IMG/VR virus record: IMGVR_UViG_3300008448_000056
Span: 6,568-70,567 of that record
Length of the DNA stretch: 64,000 nt
Reading direction: 5' to 3' (one strand)
Source of the DNA: a virus
The translations under genes and the position numbers were made by a program. Position 1 is the stretch's first letter. Each line of letters starts with the position of its first letter. Shown here piece by piece: positions 3,262 through 64,000 of this stretch. Below the pieces are notes generated by a model, which worked only from the letters and a program-made list of their open reading frames with translations, did no database searches and had not been told where the DNA came from.

Positions 3262-4008
3262 TTACTTTTCATTTTGAGGCGAAATTTGGGCCGTTTCCGT
3301 GCGTCTGGTGCGATTGTGGTGCTCGGATTCAACCTCAGAAAGCGGTCTGGCCACCAAAAAGTCTTTTTTGAAGTGCCAGCTGTTCATCTGCCCGGAAGTC
3401 AGGAGTTTGATTTCGCGTTCGTCAAGCGGCTGGCAGGTTTCATCCTCGAAAACTACAACCCCAAATTTTGGCAAAAAATAGTGTCCAAAATCTTTGGGTA
3501 TGGGAAACCGTGGTTTGAGCTCCCGAAAAATCTCAACCTTTTCTTTTTCTTTTTTATTTATTTTTTCTTTTTCTTTTGGAGAATCCTTAGTTAGTACATT
3601 TCCTTTACTTTCCTTTACTTTCCTTTCCTTTATAGCATTGCGGTCGCTCTCCGGTCGCAATGCGTTCGCATTCGACCACCTGTAAGACGCTGATTCCCTT
3701 GCTTTTACAGATTTGAAATTTCTCTCATCTAATCGTCTTTTTACTGATTCCGAACCGAAAAAATTTCCCGAAATTTGGAACAAATCAAAATCCTGCACTA
3801 CGCTCGCAACAATGTCGCATTGCGTTCGCAAATCAAACGCAATGCCTTCGTAATCCGTTCGCAATGCGTTCGCATTATTGTATAAATCTTCGACAATTGA
3901 CCAGTAAATTCCGTACCCAATCATGCCGTGTCGACGTATCAAAATCTTGATTTTTTCGTCGTTTCTGGCGTTATAATCGTGGCTAAAATAGAAGGTTTGT
4001 TTTGCCAT
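3262..4008 (-). CDS. replication initiator-like protein (DUF4373/Lin1244 family N-terminus)
   Basis: YFSHDYNARNDEKI...GYGIYWSIVEDLY, Lys-rich linker, directly upstream of the helicase; start ATG 4008. Confidence 0.8.
   Translation of the reverse strand: MAKQTFYFSHDYNARNDEKIKILIRRHGMIGYGIYWSIVEDLYNNANALRTDYEGIAFDLRTQCDIVASVVQDFDLFQISGNFFGSESVKRRLDERNFKSVKARESASYRWSNANALRPESDRNAIKERKVKESKGNVLTKDSPKEKEKINKKEKEKVEIFRELKPRFPIPKDFGHYFLPKFGVVVFEDETCQPLDEREIKLLTSGQMNSWHFKKDFLVARPLSEVESEHHNRTRRTETAQISPQNEK
3540..3876. repeat. iteron-like repeats and pyrimidine/AT tract inside the initiator gene (candidate origin)
   Basis: CGCAATGCGTTCGCATT at 3656-3672 and 3860-3876; TGCGTTCGCA also at 3821-3830; TCCTTTACTT x2 at 3601-3620; T-rich tract 3541-3577. 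Confidence 0.6.
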
Positions 4009-44400: not shown

Positions 44401-47400
44401 GATGTTGGCTGATATCTTATCTGGACGAGAGGTAACTTCAAAAAAAGTAAAAACTCAATTAAAACTTTCTGCTGAATCAAAATATGAAACAATTAAGAGA
44501 TTTATTGATTTGCAACGTCAAAAAGGATTTAGCGATGAAGATATCAGAGCTGGTATAAAAAAGGTTGCTAAATCTATATTTCTTAGTGAATCTGATGTAG
44601 ACAATTTAATGGCCGGGGAAATCCCCATAAAAACAAAAGAAGATGCCGTTCAAGAGCAAGCAGCAGGTAAAGTTCCTGTACAGCCAGAAGCCGGAGTTAG
44701 CAAAGAAGTGGAGGGAGGAGTTCCCGGAGCAAAACCTAAAGCAGCTCCCGAAGAAGGTAAAGCTGAAGGTGAAGAAGAAAAAGTAAGGGTATCTGGTATC
44801 AAGAAGGGCTTGGTTTCCCAAGAGGTATTATCAAGAGTAAATCTTAATACAGTTGGAGATAAAGAGCTTTTAGAGTCGGGAAGAGCTATCATTGAAAGTG
44901 GGGAAGTGAAGCCAAAGACTGTTGTCAATCGTGTAATTGATGGTGGTCAGGGTGTTCTTACCCCTGCTGAGGTAGTCGCTATGATTACTTATAAGGCTGA
45001 TTTAGACACTAAACAAGAAGATTTTTCTAAAGAAATTGAAAGAAGAACAAAGGCTGGGGAAGACTTAGGTGACCTTTTGGTTGAATACAAGGACTTGCAG
45101 GTCGAAATAGACAACTACGACATTGCAGCTGTTATCACAGCTCAGCAACAATCTTTGGCATTCCGTCTTCGCAGATATCTTCTTGACAGAGAGTATAACA
45201 TTAGTGTACAAATTAATCGTTACAAGCAAACAAACGGCGGAACAATCCCTGAATCTGTACTCGCTAAGTTTAATAAGCTTAATGAAACGATAAAGGATTT
45301 GCGTAAGAAGATTAAGGAGGCTGAAGCTGTTAAGTACGAAGAAGATTCTAAGGCTGCTATGCAAAACATCATTGAAGATGTAGAGCGTGAGAATCAGGCT
45401 AACGGTCCTAAATTATATACAGAGCAAGAGCTTGAGGATAAAGTTAAAGAAGGAGTTCAGAAGGAAATTGATGGTATCTACGCAAAGATGCCAGCTGAAA
45501 AGAAAAGCAAAGCTCAACGAGTTGTAGATGCTCTCGATAATATTCAACGTAAACTTCGTAGTAAAACATATGATGCTAGCTTAGGAGTTCCCGTAGCTTT
45601 CATTGATGCGGGAATTACTGCAATCAAGAATGCTATCAAGCTTGGTATAGAAGTAGAAAAGGCTATTGAGATTGGAATTAAAACAATCAAGGATAAGCTC
45701 AATGGTGCTAAGTGGGATAAGGAGGCTGACTTCCGTAAGGATATGATGGAAGGTTTTAAAGAGGAAGGAGTTGATGTTAAAAAAACAAAAGAAGTAAAGG
45801 CTAAGATTAATGATGATGGTACAATAACAATTCCAAACAAAGACATCCGTGATTTTGTATCTCAGGGGATTGAAGATATTGATGATTTGGCTGATGCTAT
45901 ATTAAATAAGTATCAAGCAGAACTTCCCGGCATATCATCAAGACAAGTAAGAGATGCCATCACCAAGTATGGTAAAGAAGTATCACAAACAAGAGATGAT
46001 ATTTCAATAAAGCTTGGAAGAGCGAAGAGAGTCGGAAGATTGCTTTCAGAACTTGAGGATTTAAGAACTATGGATAAGGGTGCTTTCTTGTTGAAGTACC
46101 AAAGAGTTAAGCCAGCCCAAGACAAGATATCTGAAAGAGAGAAGAATCTCAAATATCTCATTCGTCAATTGGGGCGGGAAATTATGGGTGATGAGCCACT
46201 TCCCGACAACTATGACGAACAAAAAGCCCTTGATACAGCAAAGAATAGGGTTGGCCGTAGAATCGAAGAACTTAGAGACAAAGTAAGAAGAGGTGATTTC
46301 TCTAAAAAGCAAAAACGCAGAGTTCAGGCTGACCAAGAACTATTGGACCTTCAGACTCAACTTGAAAATGCTAAATCTCAATTCGACTTGGAGCATGAAA
46401 AGAATGAGCAAAAGAATAAGAAGTGGTATCAGAAAGCTGGCGATTTTGTATTAGAGCTGTTTAGCGGAATACCAAGAACACTGGTTACTGGTTTTGACCT
46501 TGGTATCGTGTTTACTCAGGGTATACGAAAAGTATTTACCAATCCTCGGATGTCTGCGAAGGCATTTGTAGAGGCTGGTAAGCAGTTCTTCTCAGAATCT
46601 AGACAAAGAAGAATGGAGCAAGAGCTTAAATTGTCTGGTTCTTACGCATTGATTAAGAATTCGGGTCTTGCAATATCGGAGGGGGCTGAAAAAGCATCTG
46701 CCCAAGAACAGATATTTATTGTCAATTATGTAAACTTAATTTGGGATACATTCTCAAGAGTTATAACATTGAATTACAAGCCGGGAACTGATTTCGTAAA
46801 GGCATTAAATCCTTTCAAGGCTTCCCAAAGATTCTTTGATGGCTACTTAAATTACATAAGAATAAATTCATTCCTTGACTTGTCGAATGCTATCGACAAA
46901 GGCGGATATATGCCTGAAACTCATCCTGAAATTTACAAAGCTGCTGCTGAATTTGTAAATACTACTACTGGTAAAGGAGCAAAGAATATTCCAAAATCTC
47001 TTGGTTTCTTAATGTTCTCTGCATCCAAAGTTGCATCTGAATTAAAACTATATACACCTTATGCATTTTATTATTACGCTAAAATGCCTAAAGCTGTAAG
47101 GAAAAGAGCTATGTTGGAGTTTGGAACATTCGCTTTGAGTTTTGGTACAACTATGTTCTTAATGAGAGCTGCACTTGGCCAAGGTCAAGGCGGTGAAGAT
47201 GATGATGAATTTTGGGATATCAATAGCAGTAATTTCTTGACATTTAAGTTTGGGAATCAGCGGGTATCATTTGCGGCTGGTGCTCGTCCAACACTTGTGT
47301 TTATGGGTCGATTGTTTAGTGGTGTGTATGTCGACCAGTATGGTCAAGAATCAAAATTGGGTGAAAGAACGGGTAAGCAAATTAATACTAGGTTCGACCT

Positions 47401-48001
47401 TATTGTTAGGTTCTTTACTGCTAAAGCGGCTCCAGTTCCCGCAGCTGTCATACAATACCTAGACAAGAAAGCTGGCGTAGAGGTAGAAGATAATGTCTTC
47501 CAAAATCTAGTCCTTCCCATGTGGCTTCAGGACTCACAAGAATTGTACGCTCAGAATCCAAAAGAAATAGGGGCCCTTTATACCCTTCTTTCACTTATTG
47601 GGGCAAACATAAGAACCGTAGAGGAGTATACTCAGAAAGAACATAAGGTCCCTAAAAAGATAATATACAAGGAACAAATATTACCGTCGGGAACTAGAGA
47701 GCGGGAAGTGACTTTAACTGATGAGCAAAGAGCTGAATTCCAAAAAATATTTGACCAAAAATTTAAAGAGAATATTGACAATATACATAAGTCTGAAGCA
47801 TACAAAAAGTTGAAAGGTAAAAATGATAGAATGCTTTTTGATGTAACATTTGGCAAGAAGGCTAAGGATGATGCTGAGACTGATGCTATAAATTTATTGG
47901 AAAGAATATATACAAGTGAATTCAAGAAGTTCCCAATAATAAGAGAAACCCCAGAAGAGAAAGAAATAAATAGAATTCTGAACATAGGGGAAAAGCGGTA
48001 A
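38468..48001 (+). CDS. giant polyvalent ejected protein (ParB/Srx-like and zincin metallopeptidase domains)
   Basis: IPPVVL...LADGHHRYIAYKELG; VFINP...ALHETGHIW...REEAL; long coiled coils; hydrophobic helices near both ends. Confidence 0.75.
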   Translation: MAENTYTGQNEDPKYRKKVYDILSSNFEDFKLSESDFYKKLDSDTGYAPKVYKVLKDNFSDFQKPEKDFMSLVGPSKKKGLFGEITTYVGQLQKEAGEALGGVKKGLETVAATAAHYERKVPRISGPVEEKVKVEVEEKLDPNDLVGSLQKTMPPLFKQTVPTSDATYIRPNAVNIFNEQERQRPEVIKGLEREKKLKDLKAAFTSDVNLSTTQLMRATGRSANEIQGASREELAQMVREGNQSDRLAAQTVADARDIRQAFTESENLEQAAIKLAALKDPQVARQIEITASKLPARNLGEVVSGTRNVMGDPKSLFGEATLGRMIYQLASNPVAVQEIEKNPELKKQFREAIPLLINKYPSFGKSYLGNVISQKMEDMGMNNALLNIVTKEETDKVVDELVSEGKMSPLEIQFYKDNMREGGIRNFAKTIIGEQLYKTPGLIERTAESAVSAIKSTGAGAAEVTGLRPLLVGERAMVARDVAARDEAVNIRPRGTINEISAFGGDFLGQVLPTGLLGKGLTAAKVFQNPDNAIKALFGLQAFGNYMPQARAMFPGEGLKQRAYAGILAGLELATENIFRDKKVIDGLLGKVKPEIASVINKFTAKEISAATAREAVEGTIAKAIRSVPQFTKYFAKGVGENTFEETVTQLGQQLTDGVFTGKKFNDWVNGEELLETARTSALGSTFIAGLSARADMLASKGMTAKMVYDMAEKPEYWIEKIRENAETDPDLQADAEDKIANLEYATKVRQDLEKTNLTEKQKIKFLINALDAHVKGKTSQSITDPVLKKRAEQEAKVVEQQQEAILNGDDQGEIEGDLSDEVVEPAGEVAPEVPAAPKEITEQEYSDFIDKGIVIPERLNDIAQKVKNQEKLSEREQEIFTDKTADINKIIAEEVKPEVPQTVKQLRAAEQAEYAAMADPNDEIKRQEIYDKYDKLITPLLEKEKEVPAAPTEGVGAKPQVRSNTDGGKYVKYNPDDVLPLLKDFEPTNTLEVENYVTQVVPSDASVEAYKMVPVDNIKPSEKLSEKDRAEIDRIKDAIKNNEDIPPVVLEFAPVIDNNSEYKFGLADGHHRYIAYKELGYNEIPSAIITSREDYTFNTNDKDVSTLFKKVVPSGVTPQAPAQAPVPSIIEVKSPKEVKQGDTVVWRGEEFVVDAVNNKGGFNLRNKKEPTWTVTDARITDEEFQGKRGEAVPEAKLEVETAPEIPAAAPVPSVQTEQVGYTSKNLPKPIGNFEVVEVIPYTEVDKNKFKPEQQLKFNQGDYYEPVRIVGDSDLIELIQMGSRLINNLKAGYEKKPINKYRKEKLEKQFGITSYEAYNKARQLAKDNRGNIENIIIIGEPVSEIKSEVPAKTTSDVVADDLLNFLGIKPEGGEVKFSKRTGQPEVIKPVDEKEKEVIDQMNAMELVNEGVELGAPSTTNEKIDVDELNSRLDTPLAKVNWDDYEGIPFAFTISDQLRSGDVTNPATGEVIGDLKGGIGFNGTSGNEGNSWANTSKDEAEALLSKALDVYNANKPLFEKLWAEGKLPDGHTPVAVVKMAESSILSNEAVFRVGIQNIKTLPERNRQKAVTVLTKTLKQKAAQISKDIKRGADAKTGAPYSENTLKAKKKLLAQYNRILDVVNKYGYKDIVEVLEDSKHFSLPEKAIITGEVFYGAPTPIGTKPIDINRSRPSTPVSVALIGNKNPELINIGRITDLLTEPSMKNVPNMHVVSIVGVDVKNPQTTETNHPNYKFGVKGQSIGVLENPVHMKDAFGEAYGSAISQVTKNEASNASINAKQAMTQGIPVQAGLPNRVLKGAVAKKNLDAIDKLTGFLRQAFPSTTFFSSQEAWDAAMADPSIKKKLKQGEVVYAFTTDGNVFINPNLKTTKAALHETGHIWMEFVRDSNPEIYKKGLSLVEGTKELEKAKEQYGDTELAREEALMELMSSKGDTIVNASQKAKFKEWLLSLYKYISESFTSLLGLSPKEVENLTLDKFIEGMLADILSGREVTSKKVKTQLKLSAESKYETIKRFIDLQRQKGFSDEDIRAGIKKVAKSIFLSESDVDNLMAGEIPIKTKEDAVQEQAAGKVPVQPEAGVSKEVEGGVPGAKPKAAPEEGKAEGEEEKVRVSGIKKGLVSQEVLSRVNLNTVGDKELLESGRAIIESGEVKPKTVVNRVIDGGQGVLTPAEVVAMITYKADLDTKQEDFSKEIERRTKAGEDLGDLLVEYKDLQVEIDNYDIAAVITAQQQSLAFRLRRYLLDREYNISVQINRYKQTNGGTIPESVLAKFNKLNETIKDLRKKIKEAEAVKYEEDSKAAMQNIIEDVERENQANGPKLYTEQELEDKVKEGVQKEIDGIYAKMPAEKKSKAQRVVDALDNIQRKLRSKTYDASLGVPVAFIDAGITAIKNAIKLGIEVEKAIEIGIKTIKDKLNGAKWDKEADFRKDMMEGFKEEGVDVKKTKEVKAKINDDGTITIPNKDIRDFVSQGIEDIDDLADAILNKYQAELPGISSRQVRDAITKYGKEVSQTRDDISIKLGRAKRVGRLLSELEDLRTMDKGAFLLKYQRVKPAQDKISEREKNLKYLIRQLGREIMGDEPLPDNYDEQKALDTAKNRVGRRIEELRDKVRRGDFSKKQKRRVQADQELLDLQTQLENAKSQFDLEHEKNEQKNKKWYQKAGDFVLELFSGIPRTLVTGFDLGIVFTQGIRKVFTNPRMSAKAFVEAGKQFFSESRQRRMEQELKLSGSYALIKNSGLAISEGAEKASAQEQIFIVNYVNLIWDTFSRVITLNYKPGTDFVKALNPFKASQRFFDGYLNYIRINSFLDLSNAIDKGGYMPETHPEIYKAAAEFVNTTTGKGAKNIPKSLGFLMFSASKVASELKLYTPYAFYYYAKMPKAVRKRAMLEFGTFALSFGTTMFLMRAALGQGQGGEDDDEFWDINSSNFLTFKFGNQRVSFAAGARPTLVFMGRLFSGVYVDQYGQESKLGERTGKQINTRFDLIVRFFTAKAAPVPAAVIQYLDKKAGVEVEDNVFQNLVLPMWLQDSQELYAQNPKEIGALYTLLSLIGANIRTVEEYTQKEHKVPKKIIYKEQILPSGTREREVTLTDEQRAEFQKIFDQKFKENIDNIHKSEAYKKLKGKNDRMLFDVTFGKKAKDDAETDAINLLERIYTSEFKKFPIIRETPEEKEINRILNIGEKR

Positions 48002-48583: not shown

Positions 48584-49156
48584 ATGGAGTTGTATTACAC
48601 AAATAAAGATTTGGTTTCTCTGGAAGGTGAAATTTGGAAGGATGTTCCAAATTACGAATCCTTATATCAGGTTAGTAATCTTGGGAGAGTAAAATCATTG
48701 ATAAAAGGTGAATTGATATTGAACCAAATTTTTAATATAGACAAATATTTGTGTGTCAATTTGTATAAAAAAGGTAAAGTAAAGATGATGAAAGTCCATA
48801 GATTAATTGGATTTGCATTTTTAAATAATGAATTAAATAAACCTACTATTAACCATATTGATGGTAACAAACAAAATAATATTTTGTCTAATTTAGAATG
48901 GTCATCTATAAAAGAAAATAATATACACGCATGGGAGATGGGCTTAAAAAAGCCATCTGAGTATCAGAAAAAAAGAGTTATTGAGTGCAATAGTGGTGAA
49001 AATAGCAAAAAAGCTAAATTAATTTTGAATACAGAAACAGGCATTTATTATTATACTATAAGAGAAGCGGCTTCTTCAATAAATATGAAGAGGCAAACTC
49101 TTAATGCAATGTTGGTTGGGAAAAACAGAAATAGAACTAATTTTGTTTACGCATAA
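48584..49156 (+). CDS. NUMOD4-HNH homing endonuclease
   Basis: EIWKDVPNYESLYQVSNLGRVKS; VHRLI...INHIDGNKQNN..SNLEW...EN..HA. Confidence 0.92.
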   Translation: MELYYTNKDLVSLEGEIWKDVPNYESLYQVSNLGRVKSLIKGELILNQIFNIDKYLCVNLYKKGKVKMMKVHRLIGFAFLNNELNKPTINHIDGNKQNNILSNLEWSSIKENNIHAWEMGLKKPSEYQKKRVIECNSGENSKKAKLILNTETGIYYYTIREAASSINMKRQTLNAMLVGKNRNRTNFVYA

Positions 49157-49689: not shown

Positions 49690-52286
49690 TGAAAAAAATA
49701 TTCTTACTTGTAATTGGGTTTGTAATGTTTAAGATGGGGTACTCGCAATACCCCATCCAACAATTTATTGGTGCGGACAGCGCAGTTGTGACATCCAAAG
49801 GTGGCTTGCAAGGCCGTTTGATTAATCACGTTTTTACAGATACCACTTCCGCCAATTCCCAACGAATCAAACAATATCCCGGTGCTATGATTTATGCATC
49901 AGGGAAGTTGTGGGTCAGAAACACTACAGCCACAGGATGGACTGAACTTGCTTATGGGCCAATATCCACAACAAATATTTACAATTCAGATGGTACTCTT
50001 ACTGGAAATCGTGAACTGGATGGTAATAGCAATAATCTTACTTTCACAGCAGTAAAGAAATTTGAATTTTCTGGAGATAGCCTTTATTATCTTCTTGACC
50101 CAGCGGGAAACCTGAGATTGAAGCTTGGGAATCAGCAATTCACCATGCAGGGTGACACGGCTTCCCTTTCCAGAAGATTATCTTACACTGCAAATCTTGG
50201 TTCTTCATTTACTAAACATAGCCTAGTAGACAAAAATTATGTGGACAGTATTGGTGTGTTAAGCCCTACAGGTTCTGGAACTACCAACTACGTTTCCAAA
50301 TGGACAGGTTCTACTGCATTGGGGAACTCACAGATTTTTGATAATGGTACGAGTGTAGGGATAGGAACTGCGAGTCCGAGTTCAAAACTACACGTTGAAG
50401 GTGGCACGTTAACGGTAATCGGTAGCGGAACTTCAGTTAATGAGTTTAGGGCTAATGGTATTATTGCGATTGATTTAACACCAAACTTATCAGACGATTA
50501 TAAGTTTAGAACATTGGTGGCGGTTAGTGGAGATATAACTCAAACTGCCGTTAATAACTTCTCATTAAACTCGGGTGGTTATTTAGGTCTTGGTGGCGGT
50601 GGTAGTGAGAAAATGCGAATCACAAGTGCTGGGCGAGTTCTCATCGGAACACAAACCGAATCGACTTATGAGTTAGACGTAGTGGGCGACATCCGTTCTA
50701 CCTTAGATGCCAACATAAACGGATTGACAGTAGGTAAAGGAGGGGGAAATGTTGCGGATAACACCGCCTTTGGTTATCAAGCAATCAACGGCACTTCAAC
50801 TGGAACATCAAACACAGCCATCGGATATATTGCGTTAAAAAGTTTAACATCAGGTTCATACAATAGTGCACTCGGTCTTAATGCTGGTAACTCACTAACC
50901 ACTGGAAACCAAAACGTATTTTTAGGCTCTTATGCTGGTGGGAGTTTTACAACACAATCAAACAACGTAGCAATTGGATATTACTCGATGGTTAGCGCTA
51001 CGTCATCCGATTTCAATACTGCTATTGGTCATTCAGCATTTCAAAACACAACAAGCGCCGGAGGAGGTGTAGCGGTTGGATACCAATCATTAAATGCAAA
51101 CACGTCTGGAGATTACAATACTGGAATCGGTTACCAATCATTACGAAGAAACACAACCGGAGCATACAATACAGCGATAGGGCATAGAACTTTGGATGCA
51201 GCGATTTCCGCAACTGGTAACACTTCTATCGGTTGGGCATCATTGATAAATGCAACTGGAGGATACAATACTGCAATAGGTAAAAATGCTGGTTATAGTA
51301 CAACTACTGGCACATACAACATTTTCATAGGCTCAGACCCATCGCTGTCTTCTGGTAATGGTATCACAACTGGGAACTACAACACCATCATCGGTTCACA
51401 AATAACAGGTCTCTCCTCTTCCCTCTCAAATACAATCATATTAGCAGATGGACAAGGGAATCAGAGGTTGTATATTAACAATATAGGAAATTTGGGAGTC
51501 AATACTACTTCTCCTACTTCACTCGGTTCTAATATTACAACTTTAGACATTGTAGGAAGGAGTGATGCTTTTACAGGTGGAATTTATTTTCGTTCTTCTG
51601 CAAACGCAGTAAGGGGATACATATACGGAACAAGTAGTTTGTTTACTATAGGTTCAGAAACATCTGTTCCTTTAACATTCCAAACGGCTGCAACTGAACA
51701 AGCAAGGATTTTTGCAAATGGAAACTTTGCCATTGGCACAACCACAGACGGGGGTTACAAGTTACAAGTATCGGGAACAACTCAAACAACTGCTTTACGA
51801 ATTTCAAATGGTAGTGTAGTTTGTGATAACACATTTATTTCAGATGCCTTTGTTTTAGGAGGTTCTACCAATTTATGGTTCTACAATAATTCAAGTAAAC
51901 AAATAAAAGCAAACGGAACTGATATTACTGTTTATACAACTGTCCCACAATTAAACACTCAAACTACATTTGTAATCAATGACGCAGGTTCAGCACCTAC
52001 AGGATATAAAATACAGAAATGGATGACAGGTAGCGTTGAAAAGGCGTTCCTTGATAAGGATGGGAACTTTACAACATTAACAAGCGGTTTATTTGGTTCT
52101 ATTGGAACTGTTAATGCATCCGCAGTTTTGGAGGCAACAAGCACCACAAAAGGTTTCCTACCTCCGAGACAAACTCAAGCACAACGCACCGCCATAACTT
52201 CACCAGCGGTCGGATTGATTGTATATCAGACAGATGCGACTGAAGGTTTGTATATTTACACCTCAACTGGGTGGGTACAATTATGA
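49686..52286 (+). CDS. tail fibre/adhesin-like protein with N-terminal signal peptide
   Basis: MMKKIFLLVIGFVMFKMGYS|Q; VGIGTASP, EKMRITSAG, many NTAIGY repeats, STTKGFLPPR...GLIVYQTD. Confidence 0.8.
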   Translation: MMKKIFLLVIGFVMFKMGYSQYPIQQFIGADSAVVTSKGGLQGRLINHVFTDTTSANSQRIKQYPGAMIYASGKLWVRNTTATGWTELAYGPISTTNIYNSDGTLTGNRELDGNSNNLTFTAVKKFEFSGDSLYYLLDPAGNLRLKLGNQQFTMQGDTASLSRRLSYTANLGSSFTKHSLVDKNYVDSIGVLSPTGSGTTNYVSKWTGSTALGNSQIFDNGTSVGIGTASPSSKLHVEGGTLTVIGSGTSVNEFRANGIIAIDLTPNLSDDYKFRTLVAVSGDITQTAVNNFSLNSGGYLGLGGGGSEKMRITSAGRVLIGTQTESTYELDVVGDIRSTLDANINGLTVGKGGGNVADNTAFGYQAINGTSTGTSNTAIGYIALKSLTSGSYNSALGLNAGNSLTTGNQNVFLGSYAGGSFTTQSNNVAIGYYSMVSATSSDFNTAIGHSAFQNTTSAGGGVAVGYQSLNANTSGDYNTGIGYQSLRRNTTGAYNTAIGHRTLDAAISATGNTSIGWASLINATGGYNTAIGKNAGYSTTTGTYNIFIGSDPSLSSGNGITTGNYNTIIGSQITGLSSSLSNTIILADGQGNQRLYINNIGNLGVNTTSPTSLGSNITTLDIVGRSDAFTGGIYFRSSANAVRGYIYGTSSLFTIGSETSVPLTFQTAATEQARIFANGNFAIGTTTDGGYKLQVSGTTQTTALRISNGSVVCDNTFISDAFVLGGSTNLWFYNNSSKQIKANGTDITVYTTVPQLNTQTTFVINDAGSAPTGYKIQKWMTGSVEKAFLDKDGNFTTLTSGLFGSIGTVNASAVLEATSTTKGFLPPRQTQAQRTAITSPAVGLIVYQTDATEGLYIYTSTGWVQL

Positions 52287-52843
52287 TAGGAATATATAAA
52301 ATAACATTCCCTAACGGGCATTATTATTATGGCCAAGCCATCAATATAAGCAGACGATTTTCACAACACAAAAGAGAATTCAAAAAAGGAACACATACAA
52401 ATAAAAGGTTGCAAAATTGTTATCAAAAATATGGTGAGCCTATTTATGAAATCGTTGTAGAATGCGATAAATCCGAGTTAAACAAAATAGAATCAGAATA
52501 TTTGTTTAAGCATATTGACAATGAATTGTGTTGCAATATGTGTAGAGAAGGAAGAAGCCCAAAAGGTATAAAAAGAAGTGATGAATTCAATAAAAAAATA
52601 AGTTTATACCAGCGAATGAATGGCAAGTCAAAGCCTGTTTATATGTTTAGCAGAGATAACATGGATATGCTTGGTAAATATGACACAATTCGTGATGCAG
52701 AAAAAGCTATCGGTGCCAATCCAAAAGATGTTCAAAAATCATGCAAATCAAATGGAAAATATAATGTTCGTGGTTACAAATTTATGTATGCTCAGCCTAT
52801 TGATAATTTATTAAATCATATTACAAACATTGTAAACTTTTAA
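52283..52843 (+). CDS. GIY-YIG homing endonuclease with NUMOD1-like C-terminus
   Basis: GIYKI...YYGQA.NISRR..QH; KPVYMF...YDTIRDAEK. Confidence 0.88.
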   Translation: MIGIYKITFPNGHYYYGQAINISRRFSQHKREFKKGTHTNKRLQNCYQKYGEPIYEIVVECDKSELNKIESEYLFKHIDNELCCNMCREGRSPKGIKRSDEFNKKISLYQRMNGKSKPVYMFSRDNMDMLGKYDTIRDAEKAIGANPKDVQKSCKSNGKYNVRGYKFMYAQPIDNLLNHITNIVNF

Positions 52844-57904: not shown

Positions 57905-58123
57905 CTACGTCTTGCCTCGTCGATTTGTTTTTTCAGTAGTTCTATTTTGTTGCGAAGTGCGTACGGATTTGGGGTTTTGCCCGATTCCAATTTGCGAATG
58001 AGTGCTTTGAGTTGTTGTTCTTTTTGTGCCGTTGTCATTGATTGGGTAATTTAATAGTTGGTAAATGTGTGTTATCCATTCGTTGTACGAATTGCATGGG
58101 TGTTCGGGGTATGTGGTTTTCAT
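57905..58123 (-). CDS. hypothetical early protein
   Basis: ATGA overlap with the upstream gene. Confidence 0.4.
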   Translation of the reverse strand: MKTTYPEHPCNSYNEWITHIYQLLNYPINDNGTKRTTTQSTHSQIGIGQNPKSVRTSQQNRTTEKTNRRGKT

Positions 58124-58689
58124 CTTAGTGATTGTTTAAGTTCATCAATTGTGATTCCTGCTTCTTCGCATAGCCATTCGGTGATTGCCTTTACCTCGGA
58201 TTCCCTACAAATAACATCCGATGAGGTGCTGAATACATTGGACGTGGGGGCGAAGGCGAAGATGATTTCGTACGGGCATTCCAATCTGCCTTCCAATACC
58301 TCATCAACAAGGCGGTTGAATTTATGCTTCCAAGGTACGTCATCGTAGTTACCCGTTGACCACCCGCTTGCTAGGTTTGTGTATCCGTCACCGATTTGTG
58401 AGTCCCAGTACCCCCGCCATCCGTCAGTACGGACGTACTTGAATTCAGGAACTGCCTTGCAGTCGGCTTCCTCAAAATATTCGGTATCTTGGTATCCGAA
58501 TTCAGAACACCATAGGTACTTGTCTACTTCCCCTCGCAAAGTGGTAATAACTTGGCATGGATATTCCCATGCTGATTGCTCACAAGATTCGCATATCTCT
58601 TCGCCCGAGCGGGTGAGGTAACTGCCATCGCAATTCGTATCAATCTCCGATTGACAAGATGCACATTTGATGATGTTTGTTGGTTCCAT
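58120..58689 (-). CDS. acidic protein with N-terminal Zn ribbon
   Basis: CASC...CESC; YVRTDGWRGYW; PTSNVFS. Confidence 0.65.
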   Translation of the reverse strand: MEPTNIIKCASCQSEIDTNCDGSYLTRSGEEICESCEQSAWEYPCQVITTLRGEVDKYLWCSEFGYQDTEYFEEADCKAVPEFKYVRTDGWRGYWDSQIGDGYTNLASGWSTGNYDDVPWKHKFNRLVDEVLEGRLECPYEIIFAFAPTSNVFSTSSDVICRESEVKAITEWLCEEAGITIDELKQSLR

Positions 58690-58719
58690 TGTGTGTGTTT
58701 TTTATGGTTTGGGAATTGG

Positions 58720-58938
58720 TTATTTTGTATCAATTGAATATAGATATTCGAGCATACATTCGTATTCGGGTTGGTTGGGGTCATTGTATTTTGAATCGCA
58801 ATACTTCCCGTACTCATCGCATACAATACCATATAATTCATCGTACTCAATCTCGTTTGGGATTACCGCGTTGTACAAATTACTAAACAAGAAGAATGAA
58901 TAGTCGCAGTAAGGTCGGTTCAATGATGTGTTGTTCAT
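58720..58938 (-). CDS. hypothetical early protein
   Basis: AAAACAAAACACC leader. Confidence 0.55.
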   Translation of the reverse strand: MNNTSLNRPYCDYSFFLFSNLYNAVIPNEIEYDELYGIVCDEYGKYCDSKYNDPNQPEYECMLEYLYSIDTK

Positions 58939-58956
58939 GGTGTTTTGTTTTACTGG

Positions 58957-59157
58957 TTATAAAATCATCAGAGATTCAATCTCGTTTTGTAAATACTTGG
59001 TTGCTTGATGAAGTACCTCTTCATCCGATATCCTCAATATATGACCCGAACGAAGTTCGATGTATAGATTGCCGGAATCAGTTAATACTCGGATGTCGTT
59101 TTCTTCCGCAATGGTGTCCAAGCTTAATTTTGCGTAGTTAAGTGTTTTGCTGTTCAT
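58957..59157 (-). CDS. hypothetical early protein
   Basis: AC-rich leader and promoter motif. Confidence 0.6.
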   Translation of the reverse strand: MNSKTLNYAKLSLDTIAEENDIRVLTDSGNLYIELRSGHILRISDEEVLHQATKYLQNEIESLMIL

Positions 59158-59215
59158 AGTGTTTTGTTTTATTGATTAACGAATAAGTAAACAATGTTAT
59201 TGTGTCAGGGAAGTG

Positions 59216-59506
59216 TTAAAGAATAACCCGAATGCGTCTGCCTTGAGTTCCCTCCCATTCAACATTCAGTCCGTTGTTTTTTAGAATGCTCACAATCTCT
59301 TCCCCATTCCCAGCCCAAGCAAGATATACATCTCCGTCTTTGTCCATCCGTTGTTTGTCTTGTGCATGGTAAAATACTGCCCGTTCTGATTTGTCATCGG
59401 GGACTGATGCCCAACCGCACGATTGACAACATTTGTGATTTTGACGTGCGAAATAACCTACTTTGCGTAGTTCTTTGAATGCTTTAGTTAATTGTTCTTT
59501 TTTCAT
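59216..59506 (-). CDS. DUF6891-like protein
   Basis: AFKELRKVG.FARQN..CCQSCG...VFYHAQD...YLAW...GL.VEWEG. Confidence 0.6.
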   Translation of the reverse strand: MKKEQLTKAFKELRKVGYFARQNHKCCQSCGWASVPDDKSERAVFYHAQDKQRMDKDGDVYLAWAGNGEEIVSILKNNGLNVEWEGTQGRRIRVIL

Positions 59507-59545
59507 GGTGTGTTGTTTTTTATATTAACGAATAAGTGTGTCCGA

Positions 59546-59779
59546 TTATTGTGTTAGGGAAGTGTTAATGCTATTTTTTATTTTCCGTACGTACGCAATT
59601 GAGCATTCTGATACGTACGCAAGGAAGTTGACCGAGTGGTCGGTAGTGGAGATTAGTTTCTCCAATACTTCCCGCTTACTACACTCATCACCGCTCAGTA
59701 CTTTGTCAGCGATGAACTGCTCAATTGCTCTTGCTCTCAATGTAGGGAAAGGGTTGTTAAGTGTTGGGTTGTTGTTCAT
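59546..59779 (-). CDS. hypothetical early protein, possible HTH C-terminus
   Basis: Start MNNNP after the leader; SVNFLAYVSECSIAYVRKIK. Confidence 0.5.
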   Translation of the reverse strand: MNNNPTLNNPFPTLRARAIEQFIADKVLSGDECSKREVLEKLISTTDHSVNFLAYVSECSIAYVRKIKNSINTSLTQ

Positions 59780-59807
59780 GGTGGTTTGTTTTATGGTTTG
59801 GGAAATG

Positions 59808-60026
59808 TTAAGAGTGTGCATCGAATTCTTCGTACAATTCCTCTGCGGTCTTTTCATTGAACGTATCATCGTCAAAATAGTAGGCGATTTGTTTATCTAA
59901 TTCCTCTGCATCTCCTTCGAAATTAAGTTCAGCGAGAAGGTCTCCGAGTGTCTCGGTTGCGAATAAGTATCCGTTGTGGCTCTTTACTTGGTAGGTTTCG
60001 CCACGGAAATTGATTGTGTTGTTCAT
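59808..60026 (-). CDS. acidic hypothetical early protein
   Basis: Start MNNTINF after the AC-rich leader. Confidence 0.55.
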   Translation of the reverse strand: MNNTINFRGETYQVKSHNGYLFATETLGDLLAELNFEGDAEELDKQIAYYFDDDTFNEKTAEELYEEFDAHS

Positions 60027-60077
60027 TGTGTTTTGTTTTTTGGTGGGAAGTGTTGACACTCCCCACCGATTAGTTAA

Positions 60078-60248
60078 TTAGAAATCCGATACTTTGTACT
60101 GAACATCATACACATTAGTTGGCTCGTAATACTCATCGTAAGCCTGTTCTAACGCAATGGTGTTAGCATCTTCGATATTGGTTGCCTCTACTTCAATTTC
60201 TTTCATCGCATATTCGATGCGGATTACTTGTACTTTGTACTTTTTCAT
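60078..60248 (-). CDS. 56-aa DpnD/PcfM-like protein (not in ORF track)
   Basis: MKKYKVQV...EIEVEATNIEDA..IA. Confidence 0.6.
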   Translation of the reverse strand: MKKYKVQVIRIEYAMKEIEVEATNIEDANTIALEQAYDEYYEPTNVYDVQYKVSDF

Positions 60249-60285
60249 GGTGTTTTATTTTTTATATAACGGGAATTGTTCCCGA

Positions 60286-60489
60286 TTATTGTGTTAAGAT
60301 GGCTTCGTTTTTTAAATAAAATAACACCCTAACATAAAAATGTATTTGATTTATGTTGTCTATCGCTCCGTGTTCGCTTGATAAATCATTTATCGTTTCG
60401 CTTAATTTATTTTTGAGTTCGTTTATCCCTCCCAATTGCTGTATACCATAATTTGCATAATCGCGAATTTCTTTGTTAGATTTTTTCAT
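60286..60489 (-). CDS. hypothetical early protein
   Basis: AC-rich leader; upstream TTTG-N20-TAACTTAC promoter variant. Confidence 0.55.
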   Translation of the reverse strand: MKKSNKEIRDYANYGIQQLGGINELKNKLSETINDLSSEHGAIDNINQIHFYVRVLFYLKNEAILTQ

Positions 60490-60575
60490 GGTGTTTTGTT
60501 TTTGTGGTTATTAATGTAAGTTACTAAACAACAATATTGATACCAAATTTATTTTGTTAGGGAAGTGTTAAGGTA

Positions 60576-60612
60576 GAAAATGATGGGGGTCAGTACTTCC
60601 CGACCCCCATCG
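60576..60612 (-). terminator. intrinsic terminator after the DUF932 gene
   Basis: GATGGGGGTC-loop-GACCCCCATC-ATTTTCT. Confidence 0.7.
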
Positions 60613-60620
60613 GTCACACA

Positions 60621-61562
60621 CTATGCAAGAGATAAGATGCTATTGAACGCTTGGTTGTCAATTCCCAACCCAGTGCCAACATATTTGGACTCAAGGCGGG
60701 CGTTGTCACGCTTGGGTACGGGTAGCTTGTGGGAAGTGTAGTGTGTCACTCCGCTGAATAGACCCCACAACGTGTCACCCTTGCTACGCATCTCCGTAGC
60801 GATTGATTCCAAGAGTTCGCCCGAGCGGTTGATAGCATATGTGCTATATTGTTCCTTCGCTTGGGAATTGGTGAGGGTGATGTCCACGTCCGTTACTTCC
60901 CGAACAATACGAGCGATGTTTTCCTTGGTCACGGCAACCTCCGAGAGGCGGATAAATTGGTCGAAGATAGACCGCTCTTGGTCAGCAATTCCCACCACTT
61001 GGCGAATGGATGCCTCTACCTTATCGTGGAGCGACTGGGTGTGCTTTGCCGACTGCTGAAGTTCCCGACCCGCTGATGCGAACGTGTTCCGGCAACATAT
61101 GGTGAAGTTTACCGCTCCCCATTTAAGGGCAGTCGTGCCATCGTGTCCGTTGATGCCTGTCACGAACCCTTTCACGGAAGTGCCGTTTTTACCGATGCCT
61201 GTAATCTCGTTGCCTGTGTTCAATTGGAGGTAGACCTTCCCGCCCCCATTGAATGAACCGCCCGAATGGATGCTATAGCCTGTCTTCTCGGAGATGCGGA
61301 TGAGGAGTTCAGCCAGTTCGCTATTTTGAAAGGGAACATAGCCGTCCTTACAGGTAGCGAAGACCTTGCTATTGTCCTCCCGAACGATACCGAAGAAGCC
61401 TGTGCCGTTGCCATTGGGGAGGAGGAGTTCCTGTTTGCTCACTTCCCACCGCAACCCATAACGGTCAAGGAGGTCGGCTACCGCCTCACGATTTTCGGGG
61501 TTGGATACTTGCGTTCCGCTGAACGCGTTGCTGAGGATGTTGTCTGCGATTGTGTTGTTCAT
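60621..61562 (-). CDS. DUF932/TIGR03299 phage-plasmid family protein
   Basis: GLRWEV, YVPFQN.E, GSFNGG.KV, NGHDGT, ICCRNT, KHT, TLWGLFSGVT.Y.SH. Confidence 0.85.
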   Translation of the reverse strand: MNNTIADNILSNAFSGTQVSNPENREAVADLLDRYGLRWEVSKQELLLPNGNGTGFFGIVREDNSKVFATCKDGYVPFQNSELAELLIRISEKTGYSIHSGGSFNGGGKVYLQLNTGNEITGIGKNGTSVKGFVTGINGHDGTTALKWGAVNFTICCRNTFASAGRELQQSAKHTQSLHDKVEASIRQVVGIADQERSIFDQFIRLSEVAVTKENIARIVREVTDVDITLTNSQAKEQYSTYAINRSGELLESIATEMRSKGDTLWGLFSGVTHYTSHKLPVPKRDNARLESKYVGTGLGIDNQAFNSILSLA

Positions 61563-61714
61563 GGTGTGTGTTTTGTGTATTAACGAATAAGGGTGTTTTG
61601 TTATTGTGTTAGGGAAATGTTAAAGGGAAAATTTGTCCGCTATCAAGTTGACCGCTTTAAGGGCGATGAAGAGGACTACGATGAGCCACCAAGGGGAGAG
61701 GTCTTTTTGCTTTT

Positions 61715-61942
61715 TCATTGGTTTGTGTTTTTAGGGTATATATAACTTGAGTTATTGGTGATAAATCCTTCAAAGTGTGCTTCTACACGTTTGTTCCATC
61801 TTTTTTCCGCTATAGAATGAACTCCCGTATACGCTGAAATGAAGTAGAATCTATCGGTGTCCTTTCTCACTTGTATGCCAGAAAATGCAGTATAAACGTG
61901 CGTGGTATTTGCTATCAATTTAGCAATGTTCTCTTTTTTCAT
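61715..61942 (-). CDS. hypothetical early protein
   Basis: ATGA overlap. Confidence 0.55.
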   Translation of the reverse strand: MKKENIAKLIANTTHVYTAFSGIQVRKDTDRFYFISAYTGVHSIAEKRWNKRVEAHFEGFITNNSSYIYPKNTNQ

Positions 61943-62148
61943 TTTGTGGGGGTTTGTTGGTTTTCTAAATAGTCATCGAACTGCTCACCCAATCCGAGAA
62001 TGTTAATAGCCATAGCCAGTCCGTTGTATGTGTCTTGCAACCACCTATGGGTGGCTTTGGTGTTTTTCTTGCTCAATTGGGTGTCAAGGTGCTTCCCTTG
62101 GGCGAATAGGTCAAGGATTTGCTCTTGTGTTACGTTGTACTTTTTCAT
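61939..62148 (-). CDS. hypothetical early protein
   Basis: AAAACACACACACC leader. Confidence 0.6.
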   Translation of the reverse strand: MKKYNVTQEQILDLFAQGKHLDTQLSKKNTKATHRWLQDTYNGLAMAINILGLGEQFDDYLENQQTPTK

Positions 62149-62168
62149 GGTGTGTGTGTTTTAAGGTT

Positions 62169-62214
62169 TGGGAACTGGGAGCGGAATCGAACCGCTCCTT
62201 CAACCATTCAGTTC
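62169..62214 (-). ncRNA. tRNA-like minihelix 1 (T arm plus acceptor, ends C-CCA)
   Basis: GAACTG AATGGTTGAA GGAGCGG TTCGATT CCGCTCC CAGTT C CCA. Confidence 0.6.
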
Positions 62215-62236
62215 GGGGGGGGTATTCCCTCTTAAA

Positions 62237-62386
62237 TTAAAGAAAACGAGCATAGATACGGCGTAAGCCTAACTGACCGCCGAACTTAAAAAGAGCCAAA
62301 ATGAGAAGCCCAATGCCGAATGCAAAGCCAATACTTCCCAAGATTACAATTGCTTCAATTGGTAATGATGCGATGATTTTTTTCAT
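62237..62386 (-). CDS. 49-aa membrane peptide (not in ORF track)
   Basis: MKKIIASLPIEAIVILGSIGFAFGIGLLILALFK... Confidence 0.55.
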   Translation of the reverse strand: MKKIIASLPIEAIVILGSIGFAFGIGLLILALFKFGGQLGLRRIYARFL

Positions 62387-62463
62387 AACGTGTGTGTTTT
62401 ATTGGTTAACGATTGGTTGGTGTGTTTTATTGTGGGGGAAGTGCTGACACTTCCCCCGATTAA

Positions 62464-62643
62464 TCAATCAAGGTCGTTGATGCGTTCACTATCATCTACC
62501 GACTCCGTTATGTATTCGAAGTGATGCTTCTTACATAACTTCTCCAAGGCGGGGAGACAAACCGCATACGTTTCCTCGTCATCGAAAATAGCGACCAATT
62601 CTGCGTACTTGGGGCTGTCCATTTCGAAATAGACCTTTACCAT
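62464..62643 (-). CDS. hypothetical early protein
   Basis: Start MVKVYFE after the AC-rich leader. Confidence 0.6.
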   Translation of the reverse strand: MVKVYFEMDSPKYAELVAIFDDEETYAVCLPALEKLCKKHHFEYITESVDDSERINDLD

Positions 62644-62663
62644 AGTGTGTGTGTTTTGATGAG

Positions 62664-62709
62664 GAACTGATGGCGGGAACGACCCGCCTTCGCTCATTGC
62701 TATCAGTTC
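62664..62709 (-). ncRNA. tRNA-like minihelix 2
   Basis: G AACTGAT AGCAATGAGCGAA GGCGG GTCGTTC CCGCC ATCAGTT C: 7-bp plus 5-bp stems and a 7-nt loop. Confidence 0.55.
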
Positions 62710-62729
62710 TGGGAGGCACGACTAATTAA

Positions 62730-62921
62730 TTAATCTCTTGCGATGTAGTAAACAATTCCCTTCTCATCATCAATCTCCAATTCGTGGTCAATTACGTTGA
62801 TGATGTTTTGGGAATCTTCGTGAGATATGTTCATTCTCACCTGTTCCCGACCTACACTAAGATAGAGTGTGTAGGTAAATGTGTTTAAATCGTAGGACAC
62901 TTGGTCAATTGTTGCTTTCAT
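62730..62921 (-). CDS. hypothetical early protein
   Basis: Leader begins at the hammerhead cleavage site. Confidence 0.6.
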   Translation of the reverse strand: MKATIDQVSYDLNTFTYTLYLSVGREQVRMNISHEDSQNIINVIDHELEIDDEKGIVYYIARD

Positions 62922-62937
62922 AACGTGTGTGTTTTAT

Positions 62938-63012
62938 GGTTAAGACAATGAAGCGGGGGAAGTGTTCCCTCCGCTTCCGTGTTTCGGCTATTTTAAGCCT
63001 CATCAGTTAACC
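62938..63012 (-). ncRNA. hammerhead ribozyme
   Basis: GGUUAA CUGAUGA GGCU-UAAAAU-AGCC GAA ACA...GAAGCGG/CCGCUUC...UGU C|UUAACC: full consensus core, stems I-III, GUC site at 62944. Confidence 0.88.
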
Positions 63013-63249
63013 TCGGTACAACAATTGCAAATCTGCTAATGGGTTGCCGTTTTTGTCGCTCATTGTGTATATCCTTTTACCTTTGAATGGTAGAGGTGCT
63101 GGTTCGTTTCGGTCAGACCCTATGTAGTGAATTCCCGCAAAATTATACAACCAAAGGCTGTTTTTTTCTGAGGTCAATCTTATTTGCGAATTCGGTAAAA
63201 GGTGTTGGGCTTTGATTTTTGCAAGGTGCAAAATTTGCTCGGTAGTCAT
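63007..63249 (-). CDS. 80-aa first early protein, bracketed by two hammerhead sites
   Basis: AC-rich leader; its last codons GGT TAA form stem I of the ribozyme. Confidence 0.65.
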   Translation of the reverse strand: MTTEQILHLAKIKAQHLLPNSQIRLTSEKNSLWLYNFAGIHYIGSDRNEPAPLPFKGKRIYTMSDKNGNPLADLQLLYRG

Positions 63250-63313
63250 ATGTGTGTGTTTTATGGTTAAGACACGGATTCAAGTTTAACCCGAAGGTCA
63301 GAGGCTTGGTCAT

Positions 63314-63385
63314 TCAAAGAGCGGTGGGGTATCATCCCCTCATCAACAATACAAATATACACCCGATTAACTACTAAACAATAGA
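63314..63385 (-). promoter_or_regulatory. early promoter with boxB-like hairpin and boxA-like site
   Basis: TTG-N19-TATATTTG (63359-63352); GGGG-ATGATA-CCCC; CGCTCTTTGA (63323-63314). Confidence 0.6.
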
Positions 63386-63500
63386 AAAAGCCAACTATTT
63401 TGTTAAAGAAAAGTTAACAAAAACGGATAAAATTGACCAATTTTGTATGTGGTTGATAATCAATGATTTATAAGGTCAAAAAATGCCATTTCCTCAAATT

Positions 63501-63862
63501 TCGATTATCTCGGTGCGGGTAAGGGTGTAATACCAAAAAAAAGATACGCGAAATTTGGGGTGTTTCCGTGCGTTTAAAACGATTTTGATTTACAATGGAA
63601 TTTCTGTTAAAATATTCCTAAACAACTAAACAAGGAATATGACAAATATGTCACAATTGAGATTACCAAATATTTTTTGCGTATTTGCAAAACTTTAACA
63701 TTTGGGGTGTTTTTTAAGTAAAAATACTTAGCCGTTTATTTGCCCAAGGTTCGATTATCTACTAAACAATAAGGGTAAGATACCACAAAAAAGATACGCG
63801 AAATTTGGTGCGTTTACGTGCGTCTCATTCGATTTCGATTTGCCAAACATTTTCTGTTAAAA
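63501..63862. repeat. two imperfect 112-bp direct repeats
   Basis: 63501-63612 and 63751-63862 align without gaps (TCGATTATCT...AAGATACGCGAAATTTGG...TTTCTGTTAAAA). Confidence 0.9.
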
Positions 63863-64000
63863 CTTTCCCAACATTTCCCTTAACAGACCTTTAATACTTC
63901 CCCTCTTCCCATACCATAACAAACATACACCAAAGGGAGAAGCCGAGCCATTCCCCCCGACCCTTGGCATCCCGACCCCGACCTTGCCCCTCCACTTCCC

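Follow-up and report, generated by a model that had tools for sequence, protein, structure and literature searches.

Armless tRNA-like elements in the early intergenic spacers of a phage genome and their possible role as punctuation of early mRNA

What purpose is served by two short segments that resemble the upper half of a transfer RNA (tRNA) and are located in spacers between the early genes of a phage? The segments, designated elements 1 and 2, are found in a 64,000-nt stretch (the window) that comprises bases 6568-70567 of the 70,567-bp IMG/VR virus record IMGVR_UViG_3300008448_000056, which is rated complete by CheckV. An initial annotation had interpreted them as tRNA mimics in which a short linker takes the place of the D and anticodon arms, and had suggested either processing of the early messenger RNA (mRNA) or a decoy function. 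The elements have been confirmed as real, the comparative evidence being decisive, and the family to which they belong is predicted from its sequences to consist of ~44-nt "armless" tRNA mimics with an acceptor-like stem stacked on a T-arm and a linker of 10-13 nt where a tRNA has its D arm, anticodon arm and variable region. The function that we favor, at a probability of roughly 0.45, is that of punctuation signals in an early operon, which host RNase P and RNase Z would cut.

Further copies were first obtained by folding spacers from relatives retrieved via the neighboring 313-amino-acid (aa) DUF932 protein, and the same architecture with different stem sequences was found in this way in phage records L006 and L007. 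A covariance model built from six copies (R1) scores element 1 at 54.0 bits (E 6e-9) and element 2 at 57.3 bits (E 1e-9), and finds only these two copies in the window's own record even at E<=10. The total at E<=0.05 is 78 matches, 61 of them distinct, at 31 loci in 26 phage records: besides the window's own, these are three records with 2, 2 and 1 copies, three records reached by a linker pattern with 3 or 4, 1, and 6 or 7 copies, and all 19 of the 19 records reached by a pattern of the outer stem plus tail, with 56 matches at E<=0.01. Each record has one to seven copies, clustered within 2-4 kb on one strand. The terminases of 22 of the 25 element-bearing records searched are just 27-42% identical to that of the window's phage, to which these phages are only distantly related. 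A scan of 185,579 species genomes with the element pattern returned six stretches, of which one is a real element (L196, on a 5.3-kb contig of a metagenome-assembled genome), and gave no sign of prophages, of a matching host tRNA or of the identity of the host.

The features conserved by the family were counted by an independent parse of the ungapped sequences of the 61 distinct copies. The helix has 13 perfect bp in 53 copies and 12 bp plus a terminal mismatch in seven, and is bulged in one; the junction between its outer and inner parts shifts (7+6 in 27 copies, 8+5 in 20, 6+7 in three and 9+4 in three). The loop is 7 nt long in every copy, the linker is 10, 11 or 13 nt long in 58, and the loop-closing G:C pair (G53:C61 in tRNA numbering) is retained in 60. 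The loop sequences are TTCGATT (21 copies), TTCGACT (14), AGCGATA (10), AGCGAAA (4), TTCGTTA (3) and others (9), so that 42 of the 61 begin with TTCG and 37 match TTCGA.T. The first unpaired 3' base is C in all 63 contexts and the next base is T in 52 of them; the tail is CTCA in 31 of the 61 copies and CCAA in three. Thus the geometry of a tRNA top half in which a short linker stands in for the D and anticodon arms, as the initial annotation had described for two copies, holds throughout the family, as does its observation that the T-stems differ between copies and nevertheless pair, and the structural conservation in relatives on which it would have depended is seen in the 78 matches of R1.

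Elements 1 and 2 have their outer stem and parts of the linker in common; their inner stems differ, and both pair. The canonical T-loop and CCA end that had been noted in the first copy are indeed present in element 1, but neither is general: element 2 lacks the canonical T-loop sequence, its loop being without T54 and A58, and a CCA end is as rare in the family as the CCAA tail. The set G-1:C73 followed by CCA identifies tRNA-His in bacteria, and its G:C pair had been read in both elements. Element 1 does resemble bacterial tRNA-His in having a terminal G:C pair followed by CCA, and a 13-bp coaxial helix is the length found in tRNA-His and tRNA-Sec; unlike tRNA-His, the family has a variable terminal pair (G:C in 47 of 61 copies, A:T in four, T:A in three, C:G in one and a mismatch in six) and seldom CCA, and the 47 G:C copies largely share one conserved outer stem. 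For the 7+6 copies it is simpler to read a 7-bp acceptor stem and a 6-bp T-stem, with the C as the discriminator base.

Pairing has been maintained while the sequences changed. In the alignment of the distinct copies, 99.1% of 671 cells are paired, versus 74.8% after shuffling, and all 11 of the 11 modeled pairs are altered on both sides. Cells with a double change number 147, versus 29.5 +/- 4.5 in shuffled alignments, and none of 500 shuffles reached 147; sliding the 3' partners by one to three columns brought pairing down to 28-49%. The covariation picture was alike in the first set of 18 copies. These compensatory changes in 61 distinct copies indicate that the fold is under selection.

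Two subtypes can be distinguished. The linker begins with (N)ATGG in 36 copies, all of which have a TTCGA.T loop, and a TTCGA.T loop is found in only one of the 25 copies without an ATGG linker, element 2 being among these 25. The association of the ATGG linker with the T-loop would fit the "elbow" contact of a D-loop GG with the T-loop, or it may merely reflect two lineages. Use of the linker ATG for coding, whether to start an upstream reading frame or an extension at the N terminus, was considered and rejected: there is no consistent frame, and the covariation argues against coding. Among 64 contexts, 14 have no linker ATG, 27 have open reading frames (ORFs) of at most 25 codons and 23 read further; one listed ORF of 77 aa, from 62697, has its start ATG within the linker of element 2.

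The position and orientation of the elements are also conserved. The genes around elements 1 and 2 are read on the minus strand, and the elements lie on that same coding strand. The distance from the preceding stop codon to the helix has a mode of 6-7 nt (31 of 61 copies) and that from the helix to the next ATG a mode of 18-20 nt (29 of 57). The initial placement of both elements ~20 nt before an ATG in early spacers was accurate, the distances being 23 nt for element 1 and 20 nt for element 2, with the previous stop codon 22 nt and 20 nt before the helix, respectively. A run of C (CCCCC) precedes the helix in 47-54 of 64 contexts, and the consensus on its 3' side is CTCATCAAAAC (spelled out, C-T-C-A-T-C-A-A-A-A-C), then further A and C, with no U-run.

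Taken singly, the two sequences are only moderately above chance. The shared outer-stem pattern occurs twice against 0.00 expected (none of 100 shuffles reached two), and the T-loop-like 11-mer pattern twice against 0.11 expected (two of 100 shuffles reached two). The fold z-scores are -2.47 for element 1 (one of 200 shuffles equally good) and -3.32 for element 2 (none of 200), and the minimum-energy fold of element 1 alone is the proposed structure. This single-sequence case is weakened by the minimum-energy fold of element 2, which keeps only the inner hairpin and pairs the outer 5' strand elsewhere, and by the 51+49 matches of a loose "bulged 12-bp helix" descriptor in the 70.6-kb record: bulged-helix geometry by itself is not rare, and the descriptor, with ~100 matches per genome, was dropped as an uninformative search tool.

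The elements are not canonical tRNA genes. ARAGORN, which had been expected to miss them, called no tRNA or transfer-messenger RNA (tmRNA) anywhere in the record, the window included, and no tRNA genes in the element-bearing relatives L006, L007 and L021. A search of window 58000-64000 against Rfam at E<=10 returned no tRNA-type match, just two chance matches to small nucleolar RNAs, and a second Rfam search at E<=1 returned no tRNA, tmRNA or YrlA match. No cloverleaf was found by either program, and the acceptor-like and T-like stems are only 10-13 nt apart.

How might such structures act? On a tRNA, the features read by RNase P, RNase Z and the CCA-adding enzyme are the helix length, the T-loop with its closing pair, and the unpaired 3' base. 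Given a top-half structure across the family, it is reasonable to infer that the elements may be recognized by tRNA-handling enzymes. The spacers that hold them are too short for a promoter, so that the elements are probably carried within a polycistronic early transcript, in which each would follow one stop codon and precede the next start by ~19 nt. To the host enzymes that process tRNA ends, the elements would then look like tRNA top halves. The 5' edge of the helix would be the cleavage site of RNase P, and the position after the invariant unpaired C that of RNase Z or of some other activity that trims the 3' ends of tRNAs. Separate mRNAs would result from the operon, all having a short A/C-rich leader of defined extent, and a small minihelix RNA would be set free.

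Punctuation is favored because of the tRNA-specific features of the elements and because of two precedents. Hairpins in which an acceptor stem and a T-stem with its T-loop are stacked, as predicted for the phage elements, are efficient substrates of bacterial RNase P RNA with or without its protein, according to PMC11143913. As described there, these are laboratory constructs of 12 bp with no bulge and a 3' CCA, unlike the phage elements with their 13 bp, one-sided linker of 10-13 nt and mostly CTCA tail. The t-elements of plant mitochondria were found by the motif GGTTCRANYCC, and their ends match mRNA termini that Forner et al. 2007 (PMC1920247) ascribe to RNase P and RNase Z; in the same account, the cuts that create mRNA ends are proposed and partly shown. 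Both t-elements and phage elements are non-canonical tRNA-like structures in mRNAs (presumed in the phage) at the borders of coding regions, and the T-arm motif of the former is matched exactly by element 1 (GGTTCGATTCC), whereas element 2 and a further 24 copies deviate from it. The t-elements are organellar, scattered as single copies and shaped as non-canonical cloverleaves; the phage elements are a multi-copy early-operon family with a 10-13-nt linker for the D and anticodon arms and a 13-bp helix.

Several observations weigh against punctuation. Nineteen of the 61 loops are off the T-loop consensus (the ten AGCGATA and four AGCGAAA loops, for example), element 2 being among the deviants; an encoded CCA is missing from 58 of the 61 copies; and the helix has 13 bp where 12 is canonical. 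The 99.1% pairing was measured in alignments fitted to the model structure, which favors pairing, the helix parse being independent of alignment. All 22 sequencing runs that matched window 60000-63500 were DNA, each with at most 0.25 of the sampled words. The sample is biased, in that 22 of the 26 positive records were reached via DNA patterns derived from the element, and the distribution is patchy: at E<=1, only two of 25 protein-fetched relatives (8 via the 313-aa protein and 17 via primase, many of them fragments) have a real element, and a relative with a 94%-identical neighboring protein has no element match. Finally, sister spacers of the same operon have ordinary hairpins at the equivalent place. 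One of these (62434..62457, Table 1) is positioned like the tRNA-like elements, is not itself tRNA-like and has no U-tract; the function of a generic hairpin may be sufficient in such spacers.

These plain hairpins are among the evidence for the alternative that survives best, a structural role in cis that involves no tRNA enzymes. The elements would stabilize the 3' end of the upstream cistron, or would insulate the unstructured A/C-rich initiation region by keeping upstream structure and ribosomes off it, or would serve as operators through which an RNA-binding protein of phage or host governs translation of the following early gene. In addition to the hairpins, the distance of 18-20 nt from helix to ATG in 29 of 57 copies and the conserved flanks (CCCCC on the 5' side, CTCATCAAAAC on the 3' side) suit such a role. 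So does an early-spacer hairpin of two close relatives that have no tRNA-like elements (L003 3852-3939 and L004 4980-5095). This hairpin has 7+5 bp, a 5' bulge of 3 nt, a loop of 5 nt that is not a T-loop, and the tail CTCATCC as in the elements, and may represent the element in a degenerate or alternative form. A purely structural role leaves unexplained why the helix keeps 13 bp while the bulge moves, why the loop has 7 nt and a T-loop consensus, and why the G:C closing pair is near-invariant (60 of 61) and the unpaired C invariant. A Pfam scan of 20 ORFs revealed no protein that binds RNA or is related to tRNA, most small early ORFs being without a family. It is a possible explanation, if a doubtful one.

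Release of the minihelix might instead be the purpose. As a decoy, the freed CCA-tailed minihelix would compete for host factors or defenses that bind the acceptor end and T-arm of tRNA, candidate targets being tail-cleaving Cas12a3 and CCA-modifying toxins. The element retains exactly the parts of tRNA that such factors contact, and Cas12a3, including one from a Bacteroidetes bacterium, is described in PMC12851939 as binding the acceptor end and T-arm. Up to seven copies per phage lie in the region transcribed first, and the 13-bp length could exclude the RNA from translation. However, the encoded tail is mostly CTCA rather than CCA, the tight spacing to stop and start codons is easier to explain by a role in mRNA, and our literature search found no precedent for phage decoys of this kind. 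A decoy function is unlikely, and since it needs the same processing steps it would extend punctuation rather than exclude it. The combination in full, in which a broad group of phages, probably with hosts among the Bacteroidota, would have reinvented the punctuation of mitochondria with a minimal 44-nt mini-tRNA and would accumulate CCA-tailed 13-bp minihelices as decoys against defenses directed at the acceptor end or T-arm (Cas12a3, CCA-modifying toxins), the minihelices being too long for elongation factor and ribosome, is distinctly improbable.

An explanation at the level of DNA, without function as RNA, is very unlikely. The elements would be decaying tRNA genes, attP copies of the 3' half of a host tRNA, or borders of recombining cassettes. 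Mobile elements that integrate into tRNA genes leave tRNA-gene fragments behind, according to PMC9897764; entire spacers are repeated together with their flanks, the early region is mosaic between close relatives, and an origin from a tRNA gene is likely. But this reading is largely refuted by the covariation, in which compensatory changes preserve pairing in 61 distinct copies. All copies lie on the coding strand, and the elements are nearly absent from bacterial genomes, in a pattern scan that was not aimed at the exact 3' half of element 1. An attP copy in particular was rejected: a record has one to seven copies, every one of them has a 5' strand of its own, for which attP would have no need, no integrase is encoded among the 20 ORFs scanned, and the genome scan returned no prophage copies.

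Least probable among the functional alternatives is an intrinsic terminator or RNase III site between early genes: stable GC-rich hairpins do lie there, as in phage T7, whose early mRNA is cut at bulged hairpins between genes, but no element is followed by a U-tract (the 3' consensus being CTCATCAAAAC), RNase III needs roughly two helical turns, to which a 13-bp helix with a one-sided bulge of 10-13 nt does not extend, and the T-loop features are left unexplained. An ORF of 3177 aa in the genome prompted the idea that the elements might be DNA hairpin promoters read by a virion RNA polymerase. This is unlikely, since a helix with a one-sided bulge of 10-13 nt makes a poor cruciform and the T-loop features would again be unexplained.

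The spacers belong to a string of small ORFs (80, 63, 59, 49, 69, 75 and 313 aa) that begins just inside a 750-bp non-coding right end (Table 1). The 49-aa, 69-aa and 63-aa ORFs that flank elements 1 and 2 have no PHROG family. The leader motif AAAACACACAC has 14 matches against 1.77 expected, none of 100 shuffles having as many, and is found directly 5' of ATG in at least seven small early genes of the window; the AAAACACACAC leader is probably a translation-initiation region without a Shine-Dalgarno sequence. The nearest isolates by primase protein are Tenacibaculum, Riemerella-type and Flavobacterium phages, at 29-35% identity, and because these are the nearest primases the host is only inferred to belong to the Bacteroidota. 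A blastn search of window 60000-64000 against isolated phages gave no match.

Table 1. Features of the early region that contains elements 1 and 2 (window coordinates)
Feature	Position	Strand	Remarks
Element 1 (subtype 1)	62172..62214	-	13-bp helix split 6+7, 10-nt 5' linker with ATGG, 7-nt loop
Element 1, outer strands	5' 62214-62209, 3' 62177-62172	-	
Element 1, inner strands	5' 62198-62192, 3' 62184-62178	-	
Element 1, linker	62208-62199	-	10 nt
Element 1, loop	62191-62185	-	Canonical T-loop TTCGATT, closed by G:C
Element 1, 11-mer	62193-62183	-	Exact GGTTCGATTCC
Element 1, 3' tail	62168..62171	-	CCAA; first base is the unpaired C invariant in the family
Element 2 (subtype 2)	62664..62709	-	13-bp helix split 8+5, 13-nt linker, 7-nt loop
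Element 2, outer strands	5' 62709-62702, 3' 62671-62664	-	
Element 2, inner strands	5' 62688-62684, 3' 62676-62672	-	
Element 2, linker	62701-62689	-	13 nt; possible 2-bp mini-stem
Element 2, loop	62683-62677	-	GTCGTTC; alternative reading 6 bp + 5-nt loop
Element 2, 3' tail	62660..62663	-	CTCA, the family consensus tail
Gene upstream of element 1	62237..62386	-	49-aa hydrophobic ORF; stop codon 22 nt before helix
Gene downstream of element 1	61939..62148	-	69-aa ORF; ATG 23 nt past helix
Gene upstream of element 2	62730..62921	-	63-aa ORF; stop codon 20 nt before helix
Gene downstream of element 2	62464..62643	-	59 aa from ATG after leader motif
Leader of gene downstream of element 1	62149..62167	-	A/C-rich, G-poor; carries repeated motif AAAACACACAC
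Leader of gene downstream of element 2	62644..62659	-	A/C-rich; carries motif AAAACACACAC too
AAAACACACAC sites	58691-58701, 61564-61574, 62152-62162, 62390-62400, 62647-62657, 62925-62935, 63252-63262	-	
Plain hairpin, neighboring spacer	62434..62457	-	10 bp, 4-nt loop; -19.9 kcal/mol, z -5.26
Plain interrupted hairpin, next spacer upstream	62950..62977	-	z -5.38; not tRNA-like

Other early spacers contain a repeated cassette of ~55 nt (window 59165-59219, 59514-59568, 60254-60308 and 61569-61623, with additional sites at 59192-59226, 60544-60578 and 61596-61630), which reads on the minus strand TTAACACTTCCCTAACACAATAA, a variable stretch and TTCGTTAATA. It is preceded by a hairpin in window spacer 60489-60622 and in spacers of the two relatives L003 and L004. 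By appearance the cassette looks like a phage-specific promoter, though not like the usual promoter consensus of Bacteroidota.

The pattern scans for two linker types, which returned six and five stretches, yielded real elements in L013 (the record of L006), L020 (the record of L007) and L021. The other stretches were set aside: L016 has a 35-nt linker, scores 12.4 bits with R1 and was left out of the count; L014 and L017 are both called tRNA-SeC by ARAGORN; L012 and L015 adjoin a tRNA-Pro gene; and L018, L019 and L022 are unrelated. The 86-nt tRNA-SeC genes of the phage contigs L014 (6116-6201) and L017 (5588-5673), with anticodon TCA according to ARAGORN, may encode a suppressor-type tRNA; the 12-mer before their T-arm is identical to the linker of element 1, a match mostly forced by the search pattern. 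In L012 (1090-1290) and L015 (1740-1940), the tRNA-Pro gene is followed by three T-arm-containing hairpins with GGTTCGATTCC that ARAGORN does not call, one of which has 13 positions and no linker and scores 22.7 bits with R1. Other phage lineages may thus have truncated tRNA-like hairpins as well. At L139 79-201 (minus strand), in one relative, there is a tandem pair of elements whose outer stems are unrelated; 26 nt and no ORF separate the two, which resemble neighboring genes of a tRNA array.

Elsewhere in the genome, the last 106 nt of the record (window 63895-64000, record 70462-70567) are a 95% inverted copy of record 2425-2528, which could be a real terminal structure or an assembly artefact; two relatives are flagged by IMG/VR as having inverted terminal repeats, and one 15-kb relative contig (L004/L005) matches in both orientations. 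The non-coding right end has two copies of a ~100-nt repeat (window 63520-63621 and 63770-63871; families D8 and D14), the 40-nt core of which is also found near the primase region (window 3279-3318) and which may act as a promoter or belong to an origin. Direct repeats of 11 bp, with units like GCATTGCGTTC, form an array (window 3795-3876 and 3635-3672) that lies between the genes for the primase/helicase and a Lin1244-like protein and resembles replication-origin iterons. The structural module includes an ORF of 3177 aa (window 38468-48001, plus strand) with no PHROG or Pfam family; its product could be a virion protein of giant size, perhaps an RNA polymerase of the virion or an ejection protein. 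Two homing-endonuclease-like genes are located on the plus strand among the structural genes, one with NUMOD4 and HNH (48584-49156) and one with GIY-YIG (52283-52843).

Other known systems share parts of this architecture. In mitochondrial tRNA punctuation, RNase P and RNase Z cut out functional tRNAs between cistrons and thereby free the mRNAs; those tRNAs have anticodons, whereas the phage elements cannot decode. The tRNA-like domain of tmRNA, in which a short D-loop substitute contacts the T-loop through GG, and the bacterial Y RNA-like YrlA, reportedly a tRNA mimic, resemble the phage elements in mimicking the acceptor and T-arm without an anticodon arm. Unlike tmRNA and YrlA, the phage elements are ~44 nt long, have no G3:U70 pair and no tag-coding or Ro-binding module, are present in many copies within presumed mRNAs, and give no tmRNA call by ARAGORN and no tmRNA or YrlA match in Rfam. 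Our literature search found no description of such tRNA-like elements in phages and, among the matches listed, none of tRNA punctuation in bacteriophage transcripts. A catalogue of ~10,000 candidate structured RNAs from IMG/VR, in which tRNA-like candidates are stated to overlap ARAGORN calls (PMC10690425), may list the family in its supplementary tables. What is apparently new here is an armless, multi-copy, phage-borne tRNA-like element acting in cis, tRNA-like cis elements as such being known before.

The family is invisible to tRNA finders and Rfam, and thus it is at present unannotated in dozens of phage genomes. The 13-bp length with its movable bulge amounts to a natural experiment on what tRNA-processing enzymes measure, and constructs with several genes or guides in Bacteroidota would benefit from a self-contained processing unit of 44 nt, a use to which full tRNAs are already put elsewhere. 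Should the released RNA be a decoy, it would represent a new type of RNA-based counter-defense. Cutting of the elements by RNase P and RNase Z, if it occurs, would be the first case known to us of tRNA-like mRNA punctuation in bacteriophages, parallel to that of mitochondria and to the t-elements, and would account for the expression of long runs of tiny early genes as separate messages.

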